A DNA stretch of 64,000 bases from a virus. The stretch covers positions 17,375 to 81,374 of the IMG/VR virus record IMGVR_UViG_3300045988_077266. The stretch is one strand, 5' to 3'. Positions 13,655 through 57,968 of the stretch are shown in pieces. A program made the position numbers and the translations under genes. Every line of letters starts with the position of its first letter. Position 1 is the stretch's first letter. The notes under the pieces are model-generated. The model did no database searches. It had not been told where the DNA came from and saw only the letters and a list, made by a program, of their open reading frames with translations.

Positions 13655-15502
13655 TTAAAAGACAAGTTGAATATCATCTATATCAACATCATCTTCTTGC
13701 ATAGATTGGTTGTATTTGTTTTCAAGTTTACTAGCAATATAATTGCCGTAAGATAGACAGACAGCACGGTCTTTAGTCCCCATTCGGGGTTCTTTTAATT
13801 TCACCCTGCCATCCTTAAACTCAGCACTTAGATTAACAGCCTCTTGTATCATCAAGTCAACTTGGCCATATGGAGCAAGCTCCTTTGCTAAATCCTCACT
13901 TGACAACTCAAAAAACTGGCCATTATCCTCAAGCACCTCTTGTCTATTCTGAGTAGGTATCAAGAACTTAACATTATTGCTTTCAAGCTGTTTCTTCAAC
14001 TCAACCCACATAATAGCGTTGAGTTCACTTGTGCCAACAACAGGAACAATACAAGGTAAGGCGTTTTTATCAACTGTTCGCCCCACCAAGTCATCTATCT
14101 TATTGTTTGGGACAACGTGTAAATCTTTGTCATTTACAACAGTAAAACCACAAGAGTTCCACATATTACCACGTTCAGGGTGTTCCCATTGCATAGTCAT
14201 GCGGTTATAAAGGACTTCGCCGCCACTACGAAGGTCGGGCACATAATAATCGGCCTGATAGTCCCAAAACAACTCTCTTGCTCGGTCAGCAGCGCCTAAG
14301 CTATCACTAGCCGGGTGTCCCTCAATGTAGTCTACATGACGCTCGAATCGGTTACCTTTCCAATGTAAAGACATCAGCATAATAATGGTATTATCGTTTG
14401 CTTCACGAGAGGTTGTATTAGCGAAAGCATAGTCTGTGATTACCAAACGCAACTCATTATCTTTCTTAGGGATATTACCTAAGTCTTTCATTGTATATAT
14501 GTCTATACTGGTAGGCGGTATGAACGCTTGTTCAAGTGTTTGATTTTCCTTAAAATTCTGTATCTTAAAGAAAGCATCTTCAGCCTCGCCTATCATCTCA
14601 TTCAAGTCCTCCATGCGATAATCCATATCACTTGACATTTTCCTTGAACGGCGCAAATCGCCCCACGTTTTTAGGCCATTCGCAATAGACAAGAATATAT
14701 CGCCAGCAAAAACATTGTATTGCGTCCTTTTATCATTATAATACCCTGTTACACACCCCTTGAATGTTCGCCAAAACCACTCAAACCGATAACGAGCAGA
14801 CGTAATATAAATAGATTGACATTCTTCAGTCCATCGTTTATTATTAGAATACTCAGGGTTTTCAATGATATACTTCGCTTGTCTTGGGTGTGCCATCTTT
14901 TCAAATACTGAGTCAATAATACCTTTCTTTAACAAACGACACTCTTCATAAATCAACAACGTAGCTCTACGGCCACGAGACCCTTCGTTAGCTGGTAACA
15001 CCTCAAGTGTAGAACCATTTAAAGCACAAGTTATCTTGTAACCATCATCACTCTTGGTAATAACCAAATATTCTTTCTCATATAAGAAAAGTAAATAAGG
15101 CGATAGTTTTTTAATCAATTCGTCCCTTATCTTTTTTTCTACAATAACGTTGGCTTGGGCGATGGTTGATGCAGTAATAATAACCTCAGAATATGGGTAA
15201 AGCAACATCTTTACTATTGCGGCGAGGCCAACCATAAAAGTCTTTGACAAGCCACGGCTACAAATAGCAAAGAATACATCACTAACGCCCATCAGATATA
15301 TCATCAAAGCCTGAAACGGCTTTAATTTAATCTGCAACACTAAGTCTACAAAAATATGCCAGTTACGACGAAACAGAGTAACCCAGTTAATGATATTATC
15401 TTCTTTTTCTTGAGATGTGAGTTTATGAGATGAACGTAATTGAGTGGTTATAAGATTGTTTTCCATGAACTGTCTACGCAGTCCACCCATCCGACTACGC
15501 AT
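13655..15502 (-). CDS. terL: terminase large subunit
   Basis: 615 aa with a Walker A-like motif (CSRGLSKT), a Walker B-like motif (LLIYEE) and an N-terminal LKPFQ motif. Position is upstream of the portal gene. Confidence 0.65.
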   Translation of the reverse strand: MRSRMGGLRRQFMENNLITTQLRSSHKLTSQEKEDNIINWVTLFRRNWHIFVDLVLQIKLKPFQALMIYLMGVSDVFFAICSRGLSKTFMVGLAAIVKMLLYPYSEVIITASTIAQANVIVEKKIRDELIKKLSPYLLFLYEKEYLVITKSDDGYKITCALNGSTLEVLPANEGSRGRRATLLIYEECRLLKKGIIDSVFEKMAHPRQAKYIIENPEYSNNKRWTEECQSIYITSARYRFEWFWRTFKGCVTGYYNDKRTQYNVFAGDIFLSIANGLKTWGDLRRSRKMSSDMDYRMEDLNEMIGEAEDAFFKIQNFKENQTLEQAFIPPTSIDIYTMKDLGNIPKKDNELRLVITDYAFANTTSREANDNTIIMLMSLHWKGNRFERHVDYIEGHPASDSLGAADRARELFWDYQADYYVPDLRSGGEVLYNRMTMQWEHPERGNMWNSCGFTVVNDKDLHVVPNNKIDDLVGRTVDKNALPCIVPVVGTSELNAIMWVELKKQLESNNVKFLIPTQNRQEVLEDNGQFFELSSEDLAKELAPYGQVDLMIQEAVNLSAEFKDGRVKLKEPRMGTKDRAVCLSYGNYIASKLENKYNQSMQEDDVDIDDIQLVF

Positions 15503-17850: not shown

Positions 17851-18579
17851 TTATCCCTTTTCTTCTTTTTCAGCATATCTCCACTTGAACCCGCCAGCCG
17901 TCTTTTGCTTTCTGAATGGGCTGCAACAATTAGAAATATAAATTTTATCAATTCCTGTTGCAATACCGGCAGCAGTCATAGACTCAAACACAGCAATAGT
18001 ATTTCCGTCCATATCCATTTGGACTACAGCACGAGCAGTGGTTGATTGACCAGCCGTTCTTTTATTGGTCTTAGCCTTATCTTCCCTCTTTTTCTCAAGT
18101 AACTTTTGGAACTCTTTCTTTGCCGACTCTCGCCGTTGTTCAATTATTTCGTCAACACAAGCGCTTGCCGCCAAACTGTCAGCCCTAATCTGTCTTGTGT
18201 AATCACGCTCAGTTAAAGCCCCTTTTTTGAGCCTCTTACGATATTTCCTTGTCACGCCTTGCATATTTACATCATTGATAAAATCATCTTCAGGCGTAAA
18301 TATCGGCACAATCCGACCCGGAACAAGGTAAGTTACTTCTTTACCATTTGGCATCCGCTGTTTTATATAATGGCTTTCTTCCTCTTTTATCGTAAAAGTC
18401 CCTATCCCCGGTACTCTACAACACCCGTTATAAAACACTTCACGAATAATAACCTCTTGAAAAGCAGACCACCATTCAGCAGCGGTTTGGATAGAGGTGG
18501 TGTCTTTCCAACGACAGGCTTGTTTGAAGAACTCTTTATTAGTGGTCATCATGCCACGAAAATTATTCACTTGTGCCAT
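17851..18579 (-). CDS. HU/IHF-like DNA-binding protein fused to a NUMOD-like C-terminal DNA-binding module
   Basis: HU-like arm pattern (VPGIGTFTIKEE...GRIVPIFTPEDDF). The C-terminus (DGNTIAVFESMTAAGIATGID...GGFKWRY) resembles homing-endonuclease NUMOD/IENR-type modules. Confidence 0.5.
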   Translation of the reverse strand: MAQVNNFRGMMTTNKEFFKQACRWKDTTSIQTAAEWWSAFQEVIIREVFYNGCCRVPGIGTFTIKEEESHYIKQRMPNGKEVTYLVPGRIVPIFTPEDDFINDVNMQGVTRKYRKRLKKGALTERDYTRQIRADSLAASACVDEIIEQRRESAKKEFQKLLEKKREDKAKTNKRTAGQSTTARAVVQMDMDGNTIAVFESMTAAGIATGIDKIYISNCCSPFRKQKTAGGFKWRYAEKEEKG

Positions 18580-18994
18580 CGTCTACATCCTCTTCATCGT
18601 TTTCGTCATCTTCGTCATAATTAACTAAACTCGTGTTAGCGGGATTTTCCTCACCCACATCAAACAATGTAGCCTCTTTTTGCTTTTCTGCCCATCTGTT
18701 GCTTAGTCTTAACACCGTTTTCTGGAAACCCGGAACATCTTTGGGTTCAGTATAACATTTCTTTTGCGGGTTCCATCTCCGCACATCAGCACGAGGAGCA
18801 ACCTGTTTCCAACTAAGATGTCCAATACCCGGAATAGGAACTTCAACCTGTCCTAAAAGCCCCTCTTGGATAATCTCGCCATAAATATCAAGAACAGACT
18901 TAATTATATCTGCTTGAAGCCCTGTTCTAAGAAAAATTTGATAGGCCACCTCTTTTTGAGTTAACCTTGGTTTTTTTGAACTATAACCAGCCAT
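18563..18994 (-). CDS. HU/IHF-like DNA-binding protein with acidic C-terminal tail
   Basis: HU-like pattern (KEVAYQI...VPIPGIGHLSWKQVAPR...) followed by the tail DEDDENDEEDVDD. Confidence 0.5.
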   Translation of the reverse strand: MAGYSSKKPRLTQKEVAYQIFLRTGLQADIIKSVLDIYGEIIQEGLLGQVEVPIPGIGHLSWKQVAPRADVRRWNPQKKCYTEPKDVPGFQKTVLRLSNRWAEKQKEATLFDVGEENPANTSLVNYDEDDENDEEDVDDGTSE

Positions 18995-19026
18995 ATTTTA
19001 CTCCTTTTCCCTAATATTCCGTCACT

Positions 19027-21636
19027 TTATAGACCACTAAAATCGTCAGACCCTTGTGCCCCAAGGGTTTCAGAGGTTGCAACCGCCAAACTTTTCCGTT
19101 CTCTGGTTTTTTGGCGGTTGCCCTCTACATAACACTCGTCAGAGCAATAAACATCTTGGTTGCCACGTTTAGGCTCAAATCTGCACCCACAAATGGGACA
19201 CACTTTGCCGCTAACATTGTCCTTGAGATTAGCAACAATGACATCCCCAAAACAAGCCCACAGCATTTTCTTTGTGCTAGTCTTTTGTACAGTATAAAGA
19301 TAAGCCACAAGAGTATTCACCACATAATCAAGTTCTGCCCCTGTTTCTTCAAGAATCTTATCTCGGATGTATTGATACATGAACAAATCTTCTTGATTGC
19401 TGTGATTTTCATCTTCGGCCTTAAACAAATAGTTCTGGTGAGTATTGTAATACTTATACCGCTCAACAATTTTACTATTCTCTCGAATGTCAAAACCAAT
19501 ATCTTGTTTCATTAGCATCCGATAATCAAATCGACCAATCGTCTTACAATACCGAATGTTTCTGTCTGGAATAGATAGACTTAGCCGATTCATAGCCGAT
19601 TCATTCGCTTGCTCGACTTGATGTGGTAATTTATCTTTAGCGAATTGAAAGAAGTGAGGCACGTTCGCCTTTGTATAAGATTTAATAATTTTATCAATTT
19701 CCTTGGGGCGAGTAGGAATATATAAAGTCTTAGCCGCATCGATGACAAAGTTGTTTTCCATGCACAGCCAACGCACAACATCAACCTCTTGTTGCCCCAC
19801 ATGGCCATTGTTCCAAATCTTAGTAATATTGTTACTGATAGGCCCTATGTTACCAGTTGTATAAGCTTTAGTCATCCCATCATATAGCGCCTGATTGCTT
19901 AACTCGCCGCCTTTGGCCTTTTTCATCTCGTAATATAAAGGCACTATATTTTGCATATTGCGTTTAGCAATCTTGGTTAAAACCTTATCTTTAATAACCA
20001 ATGTTTTATCGCCATCAACGTCAAACTGAAGAATCCTTGAGATTGTATCATGGCAACTTGTGTACACACACTTGGTCATACCAAACCACTTATCCAGTTC
20101 TTCGTTCCGAACGTTATTTCTAATCGGCCATTCACGATATAAGTGGGGGCTTCTTAAACAAGCTAACTCATCGCTATCACGATAATCTCTACAATAGACT
20201 TGGCCATCCTCTAACAATCCCTTGGGGTTTTGTTCACCCAAAAACAACCACTCGCAAAACGCATACAAATCAGGGCTAAGAAAGGTATAGTGACCATTAA
20301 CTCTAAGCCGACCAGCCTTAGCTTGTTTAACTAAACTCTTTTTAGTCTGCTTTAACACATCTCGTGAATACTGGTCTCTGAACAATTCAGGGTATATTGT
20401 TAAAGCCTCTTGAAAGCAACTCTTGTCTGTGTTATAGTCTGTGGCCCCAAGCAGTCTCATGGTTGTTTGGTAATCAGAGCCAATCATTTCAATTTCATCG
20501 ACTGTTTGTTTGGTTAACTTAGCTATCTCATCGTCTGTCATATCAGTTAGTGTCTGAAGCATCTGATAGTTGATTCTGGCCTTTGGAATATAATCTTCTT
20601 CGATATTGCAATAACAAGCCTCACAGCCGAAATGCTTAAACTTCTCTTTATAACATTCCCAACTGTTGTAATACTTGGCCATCTTAAACTGGCTTTTAGT
20701 AAAGATATACTTTATGCCCTCAGCGATAATATTATGCTCATTGCCATAAATATCACAAACAGTGGCCTCGCCCCCGCATTTTTCTTGAATGAACTTATCA
20801 AACGGAAAATTAACCAGCAACCCCTTGACCCAAGGCAATCTTACCATTCTGGTCTTTGCGCCCAATACCATGCCACAGCCATCCGTATGGGGAATTGACA
20901 CGCCCATCTCTTTGCGCTCAATCTGGTAAGTAATATCGCTGATATAATCTACAAGACCGGGGACAAGAGTTTCAAAGTCATCTACAACAATAGACTTGTC
21001 AATGTCAAAATCTTCCCAAACATCTGTCGCAGAGTTGTTAAGAGCAAGATAAGCAAGGAATTTATTTGGGTTGATTCCTCCGCAATAGTTTATCTGGTCA
21101 GTAGTAAGGCCACAAGTCAGCCGACCCGCCACCTCATCATAAGCCGATTCTTTAACAAAAACCGCCCTTTTTGTACGGATTTGTCCAGCAGAGGCCGTCA
21201 AGAATATATATCTCTCACCATTGTACTCAAATCCATCAAGCACCAGATTCTTAAACACCTGAAAGAAATAAACATTGATAACCATAATAGCGTCAGTTAG
21301 TTCATTTTGCTTTAACTGCAACGCACGAGTCAAGCTACTTTCAAACAATGAGATAACATTTTTTGTGTTTAAGACATCAGGATTAAGTTTTCTTGGTGTT
21401 CTATCTTCAGCCCTATCATCAAGAATTTTTGACAATTCGGATTTTTTCTTAGACAATACTCTGTTGATAGCAGATTTTTTCCAAGCTAAATCTTTACCAC
21501 CCCATTTGTCCTTATCTTTATATTTTTTTCTAAGTTGGTAAAGCCCCAACATCTGCTTGTGATAAGATTGCTCTATTGGCTCATAAAATGCGTCCGTCCC
21601 AATAGACCACGCAAAAACTTGACGTGACAGGCTCAT
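19027..21636 (-). CDS. YonO/RdRP-like two-barrel single-subunit RNA polymerase
   Basis: 869 aa. It contains FDVDGDK (DVDGD at 20008-20022), LRSPHLY upstream of that, FLTASAGQIRTKR (compare the SQlR motif of the RdRP family), and a C-terminal CPICG...CSDEC zinc ribbon. Confidence 0.55.
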   Translation of the reverse strand: MSLSRQVFAWSIGTDAFYEPIEQSYHKQMLGLYQLRKKYKDKDKWGGKDLAWKKSAINRVLSKKKSELSKILDDRAEDRTPRKLNPDVLNTKNVISLFESSLTRALQLKQNELTDAIMVINVYFFQVFKNLVLDGFEYNGERYIFLTASAGQIRTKRAVFVKESAYDEVAGRLTCGLTTDQINYCGGINPNKFLAYLALNNSATDVWEDFDIDKSIVVDDFETLVPGLVDYISDITYQIERKEMGVSIPHTDGCGMVLGAKTRMVRLPWVKGLLVNFPFDKFIQEKCGGEATVCDIYGNEHNIIAEGIKYIFTKSQFKMAKYYNSWECYKEKFKHFGCEACYCNIEEDYIPKARINYQMLQTLTDMTDDEIAKLTKQTVDEIEMIGSDYQTTMRLLGATDYNTDKSCFQEALTIYPELFRDQYSRDVLKQTKKSLVKQAKAGRLRVNGHYTFLSPDLYAFCEWLFLGEQNPKGLLEDGQVYCRDYRDSDELACLRSPHLYREWPIRNNVRNEELDKWFGMTKCVYTSCHDTISRILQFDVDGDKTLVIKDKVLTKIAKRNMQNIVPLYYEMKKAKGGELSNQALYDGMTKAYTTGNIGPISNNITKIWNNGHVGQQEVDVVRWLCMENNFVIDAAKTLYIPTRPKEIDKIIKSYTKANVPHFFQFAKDKLPHQVEQANESAMNRLSLSIPDRNIRYCKTIGRFDYRMLMKQDIGFDIRENSKIVERYKYYNTHQNYLFKAEDENHSNQEDLFMYQYIRDKILEETGAELDYVVNTLVAYLYTVQKTSTKKMLWACFGDVIVANLKDNVSGKVCPICGCRFEPKRGNQDVYCSDECYVEGNRQKTRERKSLAVATSETLGAQGSDDFSGL

Positions 21637-26335: not shown

Positions 26336-27568
26336 ATGGATAAAATCTTTGAAATCATTAACAATGAGCAAAAACGCCAAGACAACACAGTAGAGCTTAT
26401 CGCTTCAGAGAATTTTGTTAGCGATAGAGTTAAACAAGCTGTTGGGTCTTGCATGATGCTCAAGTATACTGAGGGCTATCCCAGCAAAGAGAGCATTGCA
26501 AAGTTCCAAGAGAAATATCCTGACTATGTGCATACCGGTAACACGGGCAGATATTATGGCGGGTGCGAGAACTTTGATGAACTTGAATTATATTGCCGTT
26601 ATATGTGGCAAAAAGTATTTAAGACTGATTATCATGTGAACGTTCAGCCCCATTCAGGTTCTTCTGCGAACATGGAAGTCTATGCCAGTGTGCTTGAGCC
26701 GGGTGATACTGTGCTAAGTATGAGCCTTAATAATGGGGCACACCTCACCCACGGTTCTCCTGTAAACTTTAGCGGCAAACTGTACAACATGGTATTCTAT
26801 GGCGTAAATCAATATGGCCGAATTGACATTGATGATATTTATAACAAGGTCATTGCATACAAGCCTAAGATGGTAGTTGTTGGAGCGTCTGCGTATGCCA
26901 GAGCAATCCCCTATCATACCATCCGAACAATCATTGATTTGGCTGCAATGAAGGCTGGTATTGATGCGCCCTATATGTTTGTGGACATGGCACACATTGC
27001 TGGACTTATTGTTAGTAGCGACCATGAAAGCCCATTTGGTGTGGCCGACTTTATTACCACTACAACACAAAAGACATTAAGAGGTAATAGAGGCGGCATT
27101 ATCTTTTGTAAGCCTGAATATGCAAAGAAAATTGATAGCGCTGTGTTCCCCGGCAATCAGGGCGGTAGCCTAATGAATGAGATTGCTGGAAAAGCTGTAA
27201 CGGCTGAGGAGGCACTAACGTCTGAATTTAAGGAATATGGACACCAGATTATCAAGAACGCCAAAGCTATGGCAAATGAGTTTATTAAGTTGGGATTTAA
27301 GTTGGTTACTGACGGCACAGACAACCATTTAATTTTGCTTGATTTGACCGACATTGGCGTAAGCGGTAAACAAGTACAGGACGAACTTGACAAGCACGGT
27401 ATTACACTAAACAAGAATATGATTCCCAACGACACAAGAAGTCCGGCTCAGACAAGTGGTGTTCGGATTGGTGTCCCAGCCCAAACAACAAAGGGTTGGA
27501 AAGAAGATGATTTTATCAAATGCGCTGATAAGATTGCTGAAATTATCAGGGACATGAAAACAGAATAA
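26336..27568 (+). CDS. glyA: serine hydroxymethyltransferase
   Basis: VELIASENFVS, KYTEGYP, QPHSGSSAN and the PLP-lysine block TTTTQKTLRGNRGG. 410 aa. Confidence 0.8.
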   Translation: MDKIFEIINNEQKRQDNTVELIASENFVSDRVKQAVGSCMMLKYTEGYPSKESIAKFQEKYPDYVHTGNTGRYYGGCENFDELELYCRYMWQKVFKTDYHVNVQPHSGSSANMEVYASVLEPGDTVLSMSLNNGAHLTHGSPVNFSGKLYNMVFYGVNQYGRIDIDDIYNKVIAYKPKMVVVGASAYARAIPYHTIRTIIDLAAMKAGIDAPYMFVDMAHIAGLIVSSDHESPFGVADFITTTTQKTLRGNRGGIIFCKPEYAKKIDSAVFPGNQGGSLMNEIAGKAVTAEEALTSEFKEYGHQIIKNAKAMANEFIKLGFKLVTDGTDNHLILLDLTDIGVSGKQVQDELDKHGITLNKNMIPNDTRSPAQTSGVRIGVPAQTTKGWKEDDFIKCADKIAEIIRDMKTE

Positions 27569-27573
27569 AGATA

Positions 27574-27605
27574 AAGAGGGCTGATTTCTCAGTCCTCTTT
27601 TTTTA
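27574..27605. terminator. bidirectional rho-independent terminator between convergent genes
   Basis: AAAGAGGGCTGA-tttc-TCAGTCCTCTTTTTTT. It overlaps the stop of the minus-strand gene. Confidence 0.65.
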
Positions 27606-28512
27606 ATTCTTCTGCTGTTGCAAAAACATCAAGTTCATATTTGATTGCCTTTTCTATCATTTGTTCATGCACAACAGGCGGTATCATCTTAAATCTACGG
27701 CTCTTGAGCAATCGGTCAACCTGAGCCTTATTAAACTTAGGAGCAAAGAATCCTACCATCTTTTTTAACCCACTTGGCCTTGAGATAATAAATGCTTTGG
27801 CATAATTATCGTAACCAAGATTTTTTACTTTGGCCAATATAATGGCATAATATTGTTTAATTTTTTGTGGGCTTAATTGGTATAATTCTTGCACTGAATG
27901 AGCGTTATTGTCTTTCATAAATTCAAGCTTTGTCTGTTCTATTTCAGCCCATTCTTCTGTTGTTGCAATTTGCCCTTTACTATAAACTTTGCCATTTTCA
28001 TATTTAACTGCTTTATATAATAAATATGTTTCGTTATACTCTATAAGCCCCTTTTCTTTTAGCTTGAGAAGATTGCTCTTTAAAACATATTTATCATGCG
28101 CCTCAACGATATTAAACCATCTATCCTCAAATTCTTCTGCGAGATAATCAGGGAAATCTTTTGGTAATTTTATATCAATATTTTCTTTCCCATATTTATA
28201 TAGAAAGTAATTAGTATTAACCATATATAGCCCTTTGCGAAAACTGGTATATGTATGGGTTTGAACAACATCGCCCTCAGCAAACAAGTTTAATAAAGCA
28301 GCTTGAACGAAATTGTTATAATTCTTTTCGGCTTGAATTAGTTGTTTTTCTTCTGCTGTGTATTGGCCATGAATAATATATTTACCATAACCAACTTTTT
28401 CTATGTTGTATTGTTCTTGTAAACTCTCAATATGTAATTTTCTGTTCCGGCCTCCTGACCTTTCTTTTTCGCCTAATTGACGGCATAACTCTGAATAATT
28501 TAATTTTTCCAT
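27589..28512 (-). CDS. hypothetical DNA-binding-like protein (possible regulator or replication initiator)
   Basis: 307-aa ORF, the only reverse-strand gene in the 42 kb rightward block, with its own promoter. The N-terminus NYSELCRQLGEK looks HTH-like. It lies adjacent to an iteron-rich non-coding region. The function is inferred. Confidence 0.5.
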   Translation of the reverse strand: MEKLNYSELCRQLGEKERSGGRNRKLHIESLQEQYNIEKVGYGKYIIHGQYTAEEKQLIQAEKNYNNFVQAALLNLFAEGDVVQTHTYTSFRKGLYMVNTNYFLYKYGKENIDIKLPKDFPDYLAEEFEDRWFNIVEAHDKYVLKSNLLKLKEKGLIEYNETYLLYKAVKYENGKVYSKGQIATTEEWAEIEQTKLEFMKDNNAHSVQELYQLSPQKIKQYYAIILAKVKNLGYDNYAKAFIISRPSGLKKMVGFFAPKFNKAQVDRLLKSRRFKMIPPVVHEQMIEKAIKYELDVFATAEELKKED

Positions 28513-28674
28513 AAGCGCCCCTTTGTTAAGATGGTACTTGGTACCAAATCCTTGTGCCCAGCAATAACGCTCTGCGTTTTGCGTCTCCTTATTTCATCAA
28601 TATTAAAGATGGTACTAAATTTTCTATTACATATATATAGTGATTACAAAAGTGGTACCATCTTCACCTTTACC

Positions 28675-28703
28675 ATATTATCACATATCAACGCTATTGT
28701 CAA
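28675..28703 (-). promoter_or_regulatory. sigma70-type promoter for the 27589..28512 gene
   Basis: Minus strand: TTGACA atagcgttgatatgtga TAATAT with a 17-bp spacer and a TG-extended -10. Confidence 0.55.
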
Positions 28704-28740
28704 TATATATAAATATAAGTTAATAAATTGTTAATAATTA

Positions 28741-28880
28741 TGAAAGTTATAAGAAATAAAGGTAAAGGCAGATGGTAAGAAGTAAGAGATGTCTGGATGA
28801 TGTAGGTTGGGTGAGGTGGATGGTTTGGAGTGAGGGGAGATTGGGATTAAGGTGGTGATAGGCGGTTGTGTTGTGTGGGT
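28741..28880. repeat. C-depleted G/T/A-rich tract
   Basis: By eye there are only 3 C residues in 140 nt (28769, 28793, 28863). The tract has many GG/GGA runs (ggttgggtgaggtggatggtttggagtgaggggagattggg). Confidence 0.85.
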
Positions 28881-28988
28881 ACTACTAAGCGTTTTGCTTT
28901 CACGCTTTAAAGCGTCATCCATAACCGACCCCGGCTGTGGGTTAACATAATGTCCCGCTGATAACAAAAGTTATTTGCGTAGTCAAGC

Positions 28989-29024
28989 AAAACTAGAATC
29001 AATACTAGAACGCATTCTAGTTTT
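28989..29024. repeat. perfect 11-bp inverted repeat (aaaactagaat / attctagtttt) with a 14-nt loop
   Basis: Read directly: arms at 28989-28999 and 29014-29024. Confidence 0.9.
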
Positions 29025-29104
29025 AATCTAACTTCAGGTTGTGCCCGTGATGTCAAGCCGCAACAGCATGAGAGCGCATATATTAGGCGGGACTGTTGCG
29101 TTTG

Positions 29105-29460
29105 CAACACACTACCACACACAACATCACCCATTCCCACAACCACATCACACACTATCCATCTTCACATCACATCACACTAACAACCATATCCTTCATA
29201 TCCTTCACACTTTACTCAACATCACGCCATACAATCACCACAACTATTATATACTATATCAATACCATACAATACAGTTATCAAAACCATATTCAATCAT
29301 ATTATAAACCATATTTATATATCATTCATACAAACATACAATCTATAAATCATTATCATATCATATAGTATTAAAGACTATAAAGACTATATCACCACCT
29401 ACACCAGAACAATAATTATTATCATATTTTATAATCATTATAACTATATCATATAATCTC
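29105..29460. repeat. G-depleted C/A/T-rich tract (mirror of 28741..28880)
   Basis: By eye there are only 6 G residues in 356 nt. The tract is rich in CAC/CAT/ATC motifs (catcacacactatccatcttcacatcacatcacac...). Confidence 0.85.
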
Positions 29461-29520
29461 AATCTCTATATAATATAGTTTTGAAAATCATATCAAGTCA
29501 TATATTAGGCCGAAATTCCT

Positions 29521-29636
29521 ATATTCATTTATTCATGGATATTCATTGAATATTCATATCAATATTGGCCTTAAATATGAATATTTGAACTTTTCAAGTG
29601 AATAAAGGGCGAAAAGTTAATTAAATCTATGAATAT
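29521..29636. repeat. iteron-like ATATTCAT array
   Basis: Direct copies lie at 29521, 29530 (7-mer), 29539 and 29550, spaced 9-11 bp. Inverted ATGAATAT copies lie at 29577 and 29629, with another at 29874. Confidence 0.75.
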
Positions 29637-29856
29637 CATAACGTTATAAATATACAAATCCAAGTTAAGGCGTCTGCCATATAATTATAGCGCCCATGCC
29701 TAAAAGCAAAACGTAACCGTTTACTTAGCGTTATAGGGGCGTTCTTGCGTGGTGGACATTTGTAAGTGTTTTGTGTTTGGTTTATATATTATATATGTAT
29801 ATAATCCACTATACAATATCACTAAAAACTTTTTAATATTTTAGTTATTTTGCCTA

Positions 29857-29884
29857 TTGTAATCCGGGCCAATATGAATATAAT
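29857..29884 (+). promoter_or_regulatory. possible promoter of the small-gene module
   Basis: TTGTAA-16 bp-TATAAT, weaker than the other promoters. Confidence 0.35.
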
Positions 29885-29933
29885 AATAATCACAAGGAAC
29901 GCCTTACAAGGTTAACAAAATAAGGAGGGCAAA

Positions 29934-33700: not shown

Positions 33701-33820
33701 TATCGCTTTAGCGATTTAAAGTGTAACGGTTTAGTTGACTAAATCACTAAATCAAAAATTTTTTCAAATTCCCCGTAAATGGGCACACGATTAAGCGGTT
33801 TTTTTAAATTTCCCAGCGAT

Positions 33821-34061
33821 ATGGTATATATATGGATATATAGATATATGTATATATATGCTTATATATAGATATGTGGGGGTTTGGGTGTATGGATAGA
33901 CTGTATATGGATGGATGGATAAATTTAAGGGGTTGGATAAATGGGTTTAGATAAATGGATAGGTAGATGGATTTAACGTTATAAGTGTGAATGGATAGAC
34001 GCATATAGCTCAGTCAACATATAAACAAACCCATGTGCAAAATTCTGTGGATATGTGGATA
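33821..34061. repeat. C-depleted TGGATA-rich repeat tract
   Basis: Eight exact TGGATA copies start at 33833, 33893, 33916, 33934, 33956, 33992, 34048 and 34056, plus TGGATG/TGGATT variants. By eye there are only 4 C residues in 33821-34000. Confidence 0.85.
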
Positions 34062-34270
34062 GGTTAAGGTCGATAGCTGTATAGACACATGGACAAAGCT
34101 GGTGCATAAACCTATCAACTCATCAACACATACACGTAGAATCGCTAAACTGGGTGTAGATGTAGGTGACTATACCAATGCAAATGTGGCTGTGTTTGTA
34201 TCTGCATATGTGTATGAAAATGTTGCTGATTATGTAGATGTGTGCATGAAAAGAAAATTTTTTATATCTA

Positions 34271-46226: not shown

Positions 46227-46392
46227 GATTGTGTTGACTGGATTACTGTTGATTTTGGCCCTTGTTAATCTGTGGACGGCTAAGACTGCTTATAAAGACA
46301 AGCGATATAGCTCTTCTTGTGTAGGTTGTTTTGTGAGTGGAATTTGTTTTTCAGGGGTTGTGTTTGATGTGTTGCATTTGATTGGAGGGTAA
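46219..46392 (+). CDS. small membrane protein
   Basis: 57-codon ORF (MFEIVLTGLLLILALVNLW...) with an AAGGAG RBS, below the ORF-track cutoff. Confidence 0.4.
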   Translation: MFEIVLTGLLLILALVNLWTAKTAYKDKRYSSSCVGCFVSGICFSGVVFDVLHLIGG

Positions 46393-46393
46393 T

Positions 46394-47455
46394 ATGGTAT
46401 ATCTTGACTATGCCGCAACCTACCCTTATGTTAAGTACCCAAGTTCAGCTTATGGGCCTTTCCTTAATCCAAACACCAACTATGCTTACAAGGAAAAACG
46501 CCTACTAGCTGAAGCAGAGAACAGAGTAAAAAAGGCTATTGGGGCTAAAAGCGGCAAGGTTGTTTTTGGTGGCACGAGTAGTCAGTTGATTGAGAATTTG
46601 ATGAATGTCATTCTATCGTCCGAATATAGTTGTGATGTTTTTTGTTCTAAGTACGAGCATGATAGCTTTTTTAGATATAGAGATGATAGTTTTTACGACA
46701 AAGACGAACTTGAATTGCTTTTGAGTCAAGCAGATAATTATACTATCCCTATCGTGTTATGGCAAGCCGTACAAAACATCACAGGCGAAATTTTTCCAAC
46801 TAAACAAATTGGTGGACTTGTTCATAAATATAATGGCTTTTATATTTGTGACGGTACAGCACAGATTGGGCATACGCCTATTGAACCCAATATTGATGAC
46901 TGGTGTGATTTTTTAATTCTTGACGGGCACAAAGCCGGGACAGAATTAGGTATTGGTTGTTGTTGGATTAGCAACCGCTTAGACAAATGGCTTAATGGTT
47001 TTAAGTTGCATGGTACACCCAATCTTGCTGGTGCATTGGCTTTGACTCAAGCGGTTGAGGATGCTTGCGATAAAGAAAATTTAACTAAACAAGAGCATGA
47101 ATGGTTTGATTTACGACTTTACTTGGAACAATTATTTTTTGAGCAAGATATTGAGTTTGAGTATGCAGGTGAATTAATAGTTCCAAAACTTACTAATGCA
47201 ATTCACGCCATTCGCCTACCGGGATTTAATGCGGATGCTCTACAACAATATCTCGCTTCCAAACAAATCTATGTATCTATTGGCGGCTCTGCTTGTACCG
47301 AAAAGCATGATTATCGAGTGTTAAATGCCTATGGTTTGAGTAACGATGAAGCCAGTGAGGTTATTAGAGTTAGTTTTGGCGAGGATAGTAGTGTTGAGGA
47401 TATAGAAGCGTTGGTTGATGGCATTAAGAATTTTAAGGAGTTATATCTAAAATGA
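46394..47455 (+). CDS. class V aminotransferase-fold cysteine desulfurase (IscS/NifS/DndA-like)
   Basis: Start trimmed to MVYLDYAATYP... (compare IscS iYLDysATTP). It has the PLP-lysine block ILDGHKAG and the active-site Cys loop GGSACTEKHDYRVLNAYG...IRVSFG. Confidence 0.7.
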   Translation: MVYLDYAATYPYVKYPSSAYGPFLNPNTNYAYKEKRLLAEAENRVKKAIGAKSGKVVFGGTSSQLIENLMNVILSSEYSCDVFCSKYEHDSFFRYRDDSFYDKDELELLLSQADNYTIPIVLWQAVQNITGEIFPTKQIGGLVHKYNGFYICDGTAQIGHTPIEPNIDDWCDFLILDGHKAGTELGIGCCWISNRLDKWLNGFKLHGTPNLAGALALTQAVEDACDKENLTKQEHEWFDLRLYLEQLFFEQDIEFEYAGELIVPKLTNAIHAIRLPGFNADALQQYLASKQIYVSIGGSACTEKHDYRVLNAYGLSNDEASEVIRVSFGEDSSVEDIEALVDGIKNFKELYLK

Positions 47456-48423
47456 GCCATACAAAATCAGGAGGAGTGGATAGCACAGTTTTAAGTTGGC
47501 TTGTCCATCGTGTTTATCCTGATGTTATTGATGTATACTGTGATACTGGATTAGAGTACCCTGAGCTAAGAGAGTTTGTGTTAAGTCAGCCTAACGTTAA
47601 AAAATTAACCCCTGCTGAATATGACAGACATGAACACAAGTATAAGCACATTACATTCTCTGAAATCATCAAAAGGTATGGTTATCCTTTAATCGGTAAA
47701 GAGCAAGCAGCATTTATCCAAGAATACAAAACCACAAAAAGTGAGAAACTTAGAAACATTCGCCTTAACGGTAATAAATATGGCCGAGGTAAAATTTCTA
47801 AGCGTTGGTTAAAATTTATTAAGCCTACTTGTGATATTTGCGTAGGAGACAAATGTTGCGATATTATGAAGAAAAACCCGGCCAAGCGCTTTGAACATGA
47901 GTCTGGTCTACACCCATATATCGGAACCATGACTGAAGAAAGTGCACAGCGTCAATCTAATTGGTTAAAGTTTGGATGTAATTCTTTTGACAAAGACCGC
48001 CCCACAAGCAACCCTATATCTTTTTGGTCGAAGTCAGACGTATTGCATTGTTTAGCCAAATACAACATCCCCTATGTCAAAGAGATTTATGGTGATATTA
48101 TATGTGAAAACGGTGTATACACAACCACTAAGCAGAAACGTACCGGATGTATTTTCTGTGGGTTCGGTTGCCACCTTGAAAAAGAACCTAACAAATTTCA
48201 AACATTGGCCGTTCTTGAACCCAAGTTATATGATTACTGTATGCGTGGGGGGAAATACGATGAATCTGGTAAATGGGTTCCTAACAAGGGACTTGGGATG
48301 GCCAAAGTTCTCGATTTTATCAACGTAAAATGGTGGAATGATGGCGACGAAGCCAAGCGAGATGAATATAGAGCCAAATACAAAGAGAAAGAGCAAGAAT
48401 ATTCTGCAATGACTGATAAGTGA
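47452..48423 (+). CDS. PP-loop ATP pyrophosphatase of the PAPS-reductase/DndC/SspD-like family with Cys clusters
   Basis: SGGVDST P-loop only 5 residues from the start. It has CDICVGDKCCDIMKKNP and a C-terminal CIFCGFGC. It overlaps the desulfurase stop as ATGA. Confidence 0.6.
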   Translation: MSHTKSGGVDSTVLSWLVHRVYPDVIDVYCDTGLEYPELREFVLSQPNVKKLTPAEYDRHEHKYKHITFSEIIKRYGYPLIGKEQAAFIQEYKTTKSEKLRNIRLNGNKYGRGKISKRWLKFIKPTCDICVGDKCCDIMKKNPAKRFEHESGLHPYIGTMTEESAQRQSNWLKFGCNSFDKDRPTSNPISFWSKSDVLHCLAKYNIPYVKEIYGDIICENGVYTTTKQKRTGCIFCGFGCHLEKEPNKFQTLAVLEPKLYDYCMRGGKYDESGKWVPNKGLGMAKVLDFINVKWWNDGDEAKRDEYRAKYKEKEQEYSAMTDK

Positions 48424-57000: not shown

Positions 57001-57968
57001 AGTTTGAGCCTGACAGACGTGTTGTAATGAGACAATATTTCATCCTATCTACGCCCAACGTCACATCCCTTTCTATGAACAATATCGGCCAAATTAAGGC
57101 CGCAAGAGTACCCATTCCCAAGTCTATCATTGGCCCATATAACTTTAGAAAGTATGTATGCAGCAGACAGTTCAAGTTCGCCCCCCACCCCAAGTTTAAG
57201 AGCAAAACCCTATACTGGCTCGATGATATGGCACAGCGTTATTTCAACGCTCGTTGCAAGAACAGTCTAACCGAAGGCGTGGATTATTGGTTTGATAGCG
57301 ATGCAGAGAATTGGGTTGTTGTTGATAAGAGCCTTGAAAAGTTGCTTGCTCCATCTATTGAAACGCTGAAAGATTATATCAACACACCTGAGTTCTTGGA
57401 TAAGTTTAACAAGGCCAGAGCCAAACAGAGCATGATTGAGAGTGTAGATGGGTTAGATGTAAATAGGTGGTCATTTCAGGCTTGTGCATTTTACAGCCAA
57501 GAGCATGAACTTGCCAATGTTGATTTAGCCAAGTACAGTATTTCTCATTTTTCTGACTTGCCTGAAGAACCTCAATTTGTTGAGCGTTCCTTTGGTAAGC
57601 GGTCTTGGAAACAGTTTGAGTTGTCTGCTATTTGCGGGACGGTGATAGGACGAACAGACAGCCACCACCTTGTTACTATCTTAACGCCTGATAATGAGGT
57701 TGTTAATGTCAAAATGAATGATGGTGCTTTTGCCCACTACAAGGCCCAATTAAGCACAATCAATCCAGATGGTACTAAAACGGTCATTGAAAAGTCTTGG
57801 TTTGAGCGTGGTAGTTTGTTGATTTGTTGTGGGTATCGTAGAGGGGTTGATGAATTTGTAACAAAAAAATATAAGGCTAGTATTTTCCCCTCTCAGCTTA
57901 TGAAAATAACCAGTATCAATGGCTCAGACATTGAAATCCAAACAGAACGATATTCTGAAGAAAATTAA
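54072..57968 (+). CDS. dnaE: DNA polymerase III alpha subunit (DnaE-type, N-terminal PHP domain)
   Basis: Start trimmed to MSYFNNHNHTDMSN... (PHP HxH), which has a TAGGAGGGG RBS. About 1300 aa with a Pol III alpha-like core (ARGSAAGF, PDIDND, HAAGV) and a C-terminal OB-like region. Confidence 0.75.
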   Translation: MSYFNNHNHTDMSNALLGFPDVICKIPDLIQRAYDLGLNGITITEHEGISSHIKALDYYDKMEKDRPFTLALGNEVYLLTEEEDYLNRQIPNTIPYYHFILTALDTEGHHQLRLLSTRAWLRAWRQGKMFRRPTYYSDLEEIIKPNQGHVIASTACLGSRIDKLLLDNEIKKVGLEVEKLLDIFGKGNFYIECQPASDKNTPQSQVNNLLWQTAEYHNLKIIPTTDSHYLRKEDAFIHKVYLQSQEGDREVDDFYATAYLMDEAELREHLLIDFNDAQIDQMFEWSCELGERIKGYNIQHNPIIPQLPLDKIPDFTINHVFSDYYDKYPNFSWYSNRPKIHEQYFFSQIEQGLQNKIVNKGKPIEQYIARLDEEWKELKIISEQLDTSMASYYSTMSEIIELIWQAGSLAMPARGSAAGFLTCYLLEVTQIDPVPLGDYMPSWRHLNHQRGVELPDIDNDSEASKKKAIVDKMKEYFGKDKVINVGTFSKISSKTAIERACKGLDIPNDKAAYFKSLIPVNRGKVSKLKDAVYGNKDKGISPAPGLKLELSQYPHLLESALALEGLITNRGTHAAGVLVCNTPYTDYIAAMRSADGTLISCYDLWDDEAAGCIKFDMLTVEAADKIHRTMDYLLENGKIKDEGSLKETYYKWAHPDVLDYKTPDMWDILPTIYSVFQFDTPISTKALSATHPHSVMDLSAANSLLRLMPDNADETPIDRYIRYKQSKDAWLKDTTDFGLNKDEQAILWKYLADAYGMADSQEKVMRLSMDEHTAGYTLKEANKLRKSIAKKDEKLQAEAKQLFFDCCERQGTREVFADYIWNVVFAASMGYSFSQLHSYSYSIIALQELNLNYYYPRVYWNCACLSVEASGTDEENTGSTDYGEMAKAIYKMKKYGVGVHAPSINDSNIDFTPREKDSVILFGLGGIAGINIDISRQILSKRPYISFTDFYNKNAYKGSLITKSKFIQLIKAGCFDEFEPDRRVVMRQYFILSTPNVTSLSMNNIGQIKAARVPIPKSIIGPYNFRKYVCSRQFKFAPHPKFKSKTLYWLDDMAQRYFNARCKNSLTEGVDYWFDSDAENWVVVDKSLEKLLAPSIETLKDYINTPEFLDKFNKARAKQSMIESVDGLDVNRWSFQACAFYSQEHELANVDLAKYSISHFSDLPEEPQFVERSFGKRSWKQFELSAICGTVIGRTDSHHLVTILTPDNEVVNVKMNDGAFAHYKAQLSTINPDGTKTVIEKSWFERGSLLICCGYRRGVDEFVTKKYKASIFPSQLMKITSINGSDIEIQTERYSEEN

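Follow-up and report, generated by a model that had tools for sequence, protein, structure and literature searches.

What function might be served by a 1.4-kb gene-free region whose two halves mirror each other in strand composition? The question is raised by a 64,000-nt stretch of viral DNA (bases 17375-81374 of the 81,374-bp IMG/VR record IMGVR_UViG_3300045988_077266, hereafter referred to as the window), in which an arm almost free of C, a GC-normal core and an arm almost free of G follow one another between a gene for a 307-aa protein and the early/replication genes. A first-pass annotation had offered three roles for this module, i.e., a replication origin, a packaging or terminus region, or a source of skewed RNAs. 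By analogy to related phages, in which the pac site or genome opening point lies at the edges of the core, we consider that 28741-29477 is on balance probably the packaging-start or genome-end (genome-opening) region of a gut phage in the SPbeta/Enterocloster-phage supergroup, while skewed RNAs found no support.

The compositional counts given in the first-pass annotation (3 C in 140 nt, 6 G in 356 nt, and a balanced centre) were reproduced exactly. Positions 28741-28880 consist of 39 A, 3 C, 59 G, and 39 T (42% G), positions 29105-29460 of 148 A, 98 C, 6 G, and 104 T, and 28881-29104 contains 50 C and 48 G; at genome composition, the binomial probabilities are 3e-10 for C in the first tract and 3e-25 for G in the second. 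Beside the core the G arm reaches ~46% G and the C arm ~40% C, and both fade outward. In a scan of the whole 81-kb genome for depletion runs, the G-free run at 29105-29477 scored 295 and the C-free run at 28702-28881 scored 141, compared to a maximum of 65 in 50 shuffles; one further C-poor tract (33818-33999 of the window) matches the G arm in score (143). The window therefore carries a C-free arm, a block in the range of ~220-320 bp, and a G-free arm in a single copy. The longest stop-to-stop frame in the 1.4 kb is 93 codons, and the open reading frames listed there span the skewed arms.

This layout is conserved where the sequence is not. We compared 18 loci, consisting of the window and 17 distinct relatives with 46-100% identity in the neighbouring 307-aa protein, and found the order of G arm, GC-normal core, and C arm in 17 of them (the exception, L017, is without a clear G arm), persisting down to 46% identity of that protein. 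In the relatives, the C-depleted arm is 110-190 nt long and begins 200-350 nt from the gene, the G-depleted arm is 130-500 nt long, and the core spans ~200-310 bp, while across the 18 loci the arms have no conserved 6-mer beyond AT-rich words. Comparison with related phages had been suggested as a way to distinguish conservation of composition from that of sequence, and it is the composition of the arms that is conserved, not their sequence. The arms are also exchanged as units. L002 is nearly identical to the window in the neighbouring gene (99.4%), its leader (100%), and the C arm (97.8%), but its G arm is only 61% identical with 21 gaps, a clean cassette swap; L014 has a C arm 98.6% identical to that of the window next to a gene only 59% identical. 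The arms thus behave as independent swappable cassettes. That composition is retained while sequence turns over in three phage groups (this gut family and the two discussed below) argues that selection acts on the composition of this conserved element.

The link to packaging comes from cultured phages with the same layout. The window's DnaE is closest to that of Enterocloster bolteae phages (48.7% identity) and then to that of SPbeta-like Bacillus phages (37%). In Enterocloster phage PMBT24, the C-free arm (99604-99960) and the G-free arm (317-745) are the top-scoring runs and lie at the extreme ends of the record, whose position 1 was set at the pac site after PhageTerm had given one significant peak (Sprotte et al., 2024; PMC11035940). 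Since the arms flank the record ends and position 1 is the pac site, the mapped end is at an arm/core junction. Other Enterocloster phages (the CB phages) have the same module internal to their records. In SPbeta, a C-poor G tract, a ~250-bp block, and a G-poor tract lie between yonP and yonR. The genome opening point was located there by restriction mapping (Fink and Zahler, 1982, cited in PMC8270828), and in SPbeta-like phages by read mapping, with a precise ~250-bp block of raised coverage after the opening point and packaging toward the late genes (Kohm et al., bioRxiv 10.1101/2021.11.22.469490). Further, the record of phage BUCT083 begins exactly at the G-arm/core junction, while that of BUCT082, oriented the other way, has its start precisely at the core/C-arm junction, at a distance of 250 bp. 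Both phages have strong arms. Together with PMBT24, three database records thus start exactly at an arm/core junction. It is from these three that we infer a boundary role for the core edges in the window. Two sharp ends 250 bp apart and a coverage block of this kind are what a short direct terminal repeat would be expected to produce, which is our interpretation rather than that of the authors.

From left to right, the gene-free region consists of an AT-rich near-palindromic block, the G arm, the ~225-bp core, the C arm, an array of ATATTCAT repeats, and a GC-normal conserved element, and a promoter scan found it bounded by two outward-facing sigma-70 promoters. The features referred to below are as follows (window coordinates, with strand where one applies):

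13655-15502: terminase gene, ~13 kb from the module
27589..28512, minus strand: gene of the 307-aa protein, an uncharacterised family and the constant left neighbour of the module
28530..28662: leader of the 307-aa gene, with three operator-like GATGGTAC sites (28530 and 28608 on the plus strand, 28655 on the minus strand)
28566-28578: small hairpin AACGC-TCT-GCGTT in the leader, with a compensatory change (AACCC/GGGTT) in L008
28675..28703, minus strand: sigma-70 promoter of the 307-aa gene (TTGACA-17-TAATAT, upstream TG), in a block conserved in relatives
28704..28740: AT-rich block, near-palindrome TTAATA-AAT-TGTTAA, adjoining the G arm
28741..28879, plus strand: G arm, top strand G/T/A with 3 C
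28880..29104: core, GC-normal, ~225 bp, its edges being the predicted DNA ends
TAGGCGGTTGTG..GGGTACTAC: left junction motif of the core
28903-28914: palindrome CGCTTTAAAGCG, a core hairpin
28923-28943 and 28960-28975: further core hairpins, the second being GATAAC-N4-GTTATT
28976-29075: lineage-variable part of the core, with three CTAGAA sites in the window
28989-28999 and 29014-29024: perfect 11-bp inverted repeat AAAACTAGAAT/ATTCTAGTTTT
29083-29090: right junction motif TTAGGCGG
29094-29109: hairpin TGTTGC-GTTT-GCAACA
29105..29477, plus strand: C arm, top strand C/A/T with 6 G, fading to AT-rich away from the core
29521..29636: ATATTCAT array, consisting of four direct copies with 8-11 bp spacing and then two inverted ones; a third inverted copy is at 29874
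29641..29780, plus strand: GC-normal conserved element, a small hairpin ATAACGTTAT followed by an AAAACG...GGCC-type block
29857..29884, plus strand: sigma-70 promoter of the early/replication block (TTGTAA-16-TATAAT), conserved in relatives and containing the ATATTCAT copy at 29874

The palindrome, the 11-bp inverted repeat, the TGTTGC hairpin, and the ATATTCAT copies are all located where the first-pass annotation had placed them. The potential for G-quadruplexes, which it had suggested, is modest in the window (four GGG runs with long loops between them) and strong in PMBT24. The "direct terminal repeat" of the IMG/VR record was rejected as a sign of true ends, as it is only a 55-bp overlap that resembles the assembler overlap of a circular assembly.

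An alignment of 16 cores (A2) has a mean column identity of 75%, with the conservation in the left half, which consists of TTAGGCGGTTGTG..GTGCTAC, a small hairpin, ATCCATAACCC, a second hairpin, TTAACATAA, and GATAAC-N4-GTTATC. The cassette that forms the right half is specific to the lineage, and its repeats differ (CTAGAA in the window, CCTAAACC in L006, and TTTTCCACA in six relatives), and the right junction again carries TTAGGCGG. The terminase regions of L014 and L015 are 91-94% identical to that of the window although their cores differ, and in a search for genes co-varying with the variable part, terminase genes included, no gene stood out. A core recognised by the terminase would thus be read through its conserved half, since the cassette varies independently of the terminase genes.

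Based on these observations, we propose that the terminase would recognise the conserved ~225-bp core (28880-29104) and cut the replicated concatemer, and that one or both edges of the core, near 28879/28880 and 29104/29105, would become the ends of virion DNA. Packaged DNA may carry a copy of the core at each end, as a short direct terminal repeat. The arms would be selected for strand composition instead of sequence, with the strand whose 3' end points toward the core being G-rich and C-free and its complement G-free; single strands exposed at the ends by end resection, repeat duplication, or annealing-based circularisation could then fold or anneal with nothing but the core. Strand displacement that duplicates the terminal repeat would also be served by such a composition. 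Among the proteins encoded by the phage, an AAA_24 (Sak4-like) protein and a RecJ-like exonuclease fit end resection and annealing, and the recombination breakpoints at the module (the G arm of L002 and the C arm of L014) are expected near recombinogenic DNA ends. The remainder of the 1.4 kb would be ordinary control DNA, consisting of the promoter and leader of the 307-aa gene, the ATATTCAT array, the small conserved element, and the early/replication promoter.

The SPbeta opening point is a close counterpart: it has the tripartite layout in a single copy, and it separates the late side (YonO RNA polymerase [RNAP] and terminase) of that genome from the early side. The phages are related through DnaE, a YonO-like RNAP, and an HU-like protein, and the window has an SPbeta-like synteny with the YonO-like RNAP of the RdRP family at 19027-21636, the HU-like protein at 17851-18579, and then terminase and portal. 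The order in the window is late genes on the minus strand, a 5-kb plus-strand block, the 307-aa gene, the module, and the early/replication genes on the plus strand, which puts the module on the same side as in SPbeta. However, it is parted from the YonO-like gene by the plus-strand block and the 307-aa gene, its arms are more extreme than SPbeta's own, and the cores have no detectable sequence homology. In PMBT24, the G arm, core, and C arm are likewise the top skew outliers and the genome starts at an arm/core junction, but the core is 316 bp long and unrelated in sequence, and PMBT24 has no homologue of the 307-aa neighbour. The hosts of the two phages are probably of a similar gut-Firmicute kind. 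Because the pattern is symmetric under reverse complement, composition cannot match either junction of the window to the PMBT24 cut. Judged from gene order, the core/C-arm side would be the equivalent, while a conserved flanking element suggests the opposite side. This element in L008 matches its counterpart in Enterocloster phage CB457P2 with a local score of 46, where shuffles reached at most 28, and with identity in 40 of 49 columns.

Other packaging systems resemble the module in part. SPP1 (pacL-pacC-pacR) and P1 (pac with flanking hexamer clusters) have two-armed headful pac sites, similarly non-coding, with a central cleavage region between two arms and phased short repeats, but their arms are sequence-specific small-terminase or methylation sites beside the terminase genes. 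The arms in the window keep only strand composition, are freely exchanged, and lie ~13 kb from the terminase gene; sequence-specific sites in both arms were not found, as there is no shared 6-mer beyond AT-rich words and arms are swapped between near-identical phages. T7-like terminal repeats are also units of a few hundred bp between two precise cuts, which the 250-bp block of the SPbeta-like phages fits. Unlike T7, PMBT24 and the SPbeta-like phages were assigned by their authors to the headful (pac) class. We see no sign of a T7-type RNAP promoter or pause logic, and duplication of the core is our proposal here. Arms acting as end-protecting Chi arrays were considered for the SPbeta-like phages and rejected, since the Chi sequence of B. 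subtilis (AGCGG) includes a C, which the arms lack.

Several observations weigh against a packaging start. A profile of the 16 cores searched with nhmmer against the SPbeta, PMBT24, CB, and BUCT junctions gave nothing below E=6, and blastn gave low-complexity matches only, so the equivalence to SPbeta and PMBT24 is one of architecture and synteny; the short look-alike motifs in common (GTGCTA at the left junction and AATCGAA at the right) are anecdotal. The terminase gene is ~13 kb away from the module and the YonO-like gene 7 kb, whereas the SPbeta module directly adjoins yonP/yonO. The variable part of the L014 core differs despite a 94% identical terminase region, and hence is not the determinant of terminase specificity. 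The PMBT24 peak is confined to a single strand, and a nick or a library effect at a G-rich boundary could account for it. The DnaA-box-like repeats in the cores of six relatives point to replication or DnaA-dependent control, and the role suggested above for the arms is a tentative one. The core pattern had only three matches in metagenome contigs, and none in 185,579 prokaryote genomes, so neither a prophage nor a host was found that way. Several contigs break in the C arm or at its start, and one of 90.8 kb stops 15 nt past TTAGGCGG, at the core/C-arm junction, which may be an assembly failure just as readily as a real end. Contig ends were therefore not taken as physical ends: the 90.8-kb contig lacks a C arm at its other end, and others break inside the arm.

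A broader and more doubtful idea is that mirror-skewed arms form an undescribed, composition-coded class of elements flanking a terminal-repeat or pac core across Firmicute phages (SPbeta-like, Enterocloster "Kielvirus"-like, and this gut family), in which they would block misfolding and mis-annealing and could fix the register in which the terminal repeat is duplicated and the genome circularised by annealing. We tentatively put it forward as a possibility that we would not bet on. We found no description of such arms in the searchable literature, and the parts of the SPbeta papers that were searched do not mention them. If such a class exists, its conserved composition layout flanking the cuts would be a sequence-independent signature for genome ends in uncultured gut phages, and would account for assemblies breaking and recombining at the module. 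Genome-end recognition and processing are poorly understood in large headful or terminal-repeat Firmicute phages, and even in SPbeta, a model phage for 50 years, the pac site has been mapped yet is uncharacterised. The question why one strand should be without C and the other without G is testable, and could be addressed by genetics in B. subtilis and SPbeta.

Among the rival explanations, a bidirectional replication origin survives best, although we consider it unlikely. Initiators (host DnaA or phage proteins, depending on the lineage) would bind the variable half of the core, forks would leave both ways, and DnaB-type helicases would be loaded on the G-free C/A/T strands, which would be the lagging-strand templates. 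The mirror polarity suits such an outward-moving machine, and the module heads a block of replication genes including a DnaB-like helicase and DnaE. TTTTCCACA fits the DnaA-box consensus TTWTNCACA and occurs in 1-5 copies in 6 of the 18 cores, in one orientation and typically 12 bp apart where there are at least two, with a density of 2.3 per kb in cores versus 0.4 per kb in the background (six-fold); in other lineages, including the window and L006, the other repeats described above occupy the same place. Iteron or DnaA-box theta origins (lambda ori, P1 oriR, and those of plasmids) are similar in their repeated short sites, hairpins, and non-coding hub near replication genes, and in the DnaA-box-like repeats seen in some of the window's relatives. 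They differ in that the window is without DnaA boxes, an adjoining AT-rich element, or an identified initiator, and in that the DNA ends of its relatives map at the module.

The evidence from the window itself is less favourable to an origin. Its core has no DnaA box and no match to TTATCCACA within one mismatch, with the three CTAGAA sites instead; the arms beside the core are 43-50% GC with no AT-rich unwinding element, AT-richness setting in only within the C arm at >150 nt from the core; no gene for an initiator could be recognised; and virion DNA ends have been mapped to the core edges in relatives. The genome-wide cumulative GC skew turns at ~22 kb and not at the module; it tracks gene orientation, and GC skew was for that reason set aside as an uninformative origin marker. 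A second candidate site also competes with the module, namely the TGTGGATATGTGGATA sites at 34046-34062. The tract at 33818-34066 is strongly C-depleted and built of GGATA/GGATGG words, followed by two adjoining DnaA-box-like TGTGGATATGTGGATA sites, and is a separate candidate origin or binding array. Packaging and replication need not be alternatives, as the same hub may double as a replication origin whose initiator cassettes are exchangeable, DnaA boxes being the cassette of some lineages.

It is far less probable that the module is a transcribed element, either a long non-coding RNA that zips a G/U-rich 5' arm onto a C/A-rich 3' arm with a structured core between them, or inward G-rich R-loops that prime DNA synthesis as in ColE1 and mitochondrial CSBII. 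High GC skew favours R-loops, an imperfect inverted repeat brackets the core, pairing between any G arm and any C arm yields about -60 kcal/mol per 100 nt, and changes of compensatory and G-U type are seen on the plus strand in the small core hairpins, those in hairpin 1 being compensatory. However, cognate arms are no more complementary (-59.8 kcal/mol) than non-cognate arms (-57.7 kcal/mol) and thus give no evidence for a specific long helix, and a giant hairpin with co-evolving arms was rejected on these equal duplex energies. Arm lengths are also unmatched (110-190 nt versus 130-500 nt). RNAalifold on the 16 cores gave two short hairpins only (consensus -3.55 kcal/mol), and Rfam had no family either at the gathering score or in a search with a threshold of E<=10 (best E-value 1.8). 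No sigma-70 promoter reads into either arm, and the module lies between two outward-facing promoters. The skewed-RNA option raised at the outset therefore gains no support from family matches, consensus fold, arm-arm co-evolution, or promoters.

Equally hard to credit is a mere regulatory spacer, i.e., a long divergent-promoter region whose arms are by-products of mutational bias or recombination scars, as the two bounding promoters, the operator-like repeats, and the mosaic hot spot would allow, because C-to-T decay cannot raise G to 42-46% and the retention of composition during sequence turnover in the three phage groups also speaks against it.

Regulatory DNA does surround the module. The AT-rich block at 28704..28740 is 91-97% identical among relatives even where the neighbouring gene is only 59% identical. 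On the other side, ATATTCAT copies are at 29521, 29539, and 29550 on the plus strand (with TATTCAT at 29530) and at 29577, 29629, and 29874 on the minus strand. This is the densest ATTCAT cluster in the window, with six in 200 nt compared to three in the next best, and in the alignment the block TATATTCATT-TATTCATGGATA of the array is kept in L005, L006, L008, and L015. The inverted copy at 29874, counted by the first-pass annotation as part of the array, is present but belongs to the -10 box of the downstream operon promoter. ATTCAT repeats were dismissed as a motif common to PMBT24 or SPbeta, as neither is enriched for them. Between the GC-normal element and the early promoter, L008 carries an insert (2374-2425, on the minus strand of that locus, which corresponds to the plus strand of the window) that scores above the Rfam gathering score for the RAGATH-5 RNA motif; it is near-identical in L036 and absent from the window, and implies plus-strand transcription of that part.

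To the left of the module, the 307-aa protein had been suggested to bind the array or the hairpins, which its motif does not bear out. The protein has no sequence match in Pfam, PHROG, or PDB, and neither it nor the gene-free region has DNA or protein similarity to catalogued phages, while 98 clusters of homologues (39-93% identity) were found, many on contigs of 74-102 kb. Its AlphaFold (AF2) model (pLDDT 83.6) consists of repeated helix-helix-hairpin units resembling tandem winged helices, and a fold search of this model against PDB gave ScpB as the best match, which is not significant (E=0.2). GATGGTAC occurs six times in the window versus 1.3 expected; three copies are in the protein's own leader, and none is in the arms, the core, or the ATATTCAT array. 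In relatives, the leader word differs with the protein lineage (TTGCACCT, ATTGCGTCAGT, TTTCGTCACC, and ATGGTATA). Judged from these motifs, the protein looks like an autoregulated DNA-binding protein and not the binding protein of the module. The three other exact copies, at 57768, 58483, and 58925 (located where the DnaE gene ends and around the beginning of the ExoV/Dda-like helicase gene), suggest a second target.

The 5-kb plus-strand block inserted between the late genes and the module is closed by a full-length serine hydroxymethyltransferase (SHMT) gene at 26336-27568, while the corresponding block in relatives has a dCMP deaminase gene (Pfam dCMP_cyt_deam_1). Between the convergent SHMT and 307-aa genes, a hairpin and T-run at 27570-27610, read by eye, looks like a bidirectional intrinsic terminator, and transcription from outside should thus not reach the module from the left. 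Farther to the left, the predicted products at 17851-21636 identify an SPbeta-type late-transcription synteny in an uncultured gut phage. The YonO-like protein there, a single-subunit RNAP (Pfam RdRP), has an HNH-like C-terminus, and its HU-like neighbour carries a NUMOD1 domain. To the right of the module, adjoining genes at 46382-48423 encode a class-V aminotransferase (cysteine-desulfurase-like) and a PAPS-reductase-family protein (DndA/DndC-like or TtcA-like), a pair that hints at phage-encoded sulfur modification of DNA or tRNA.

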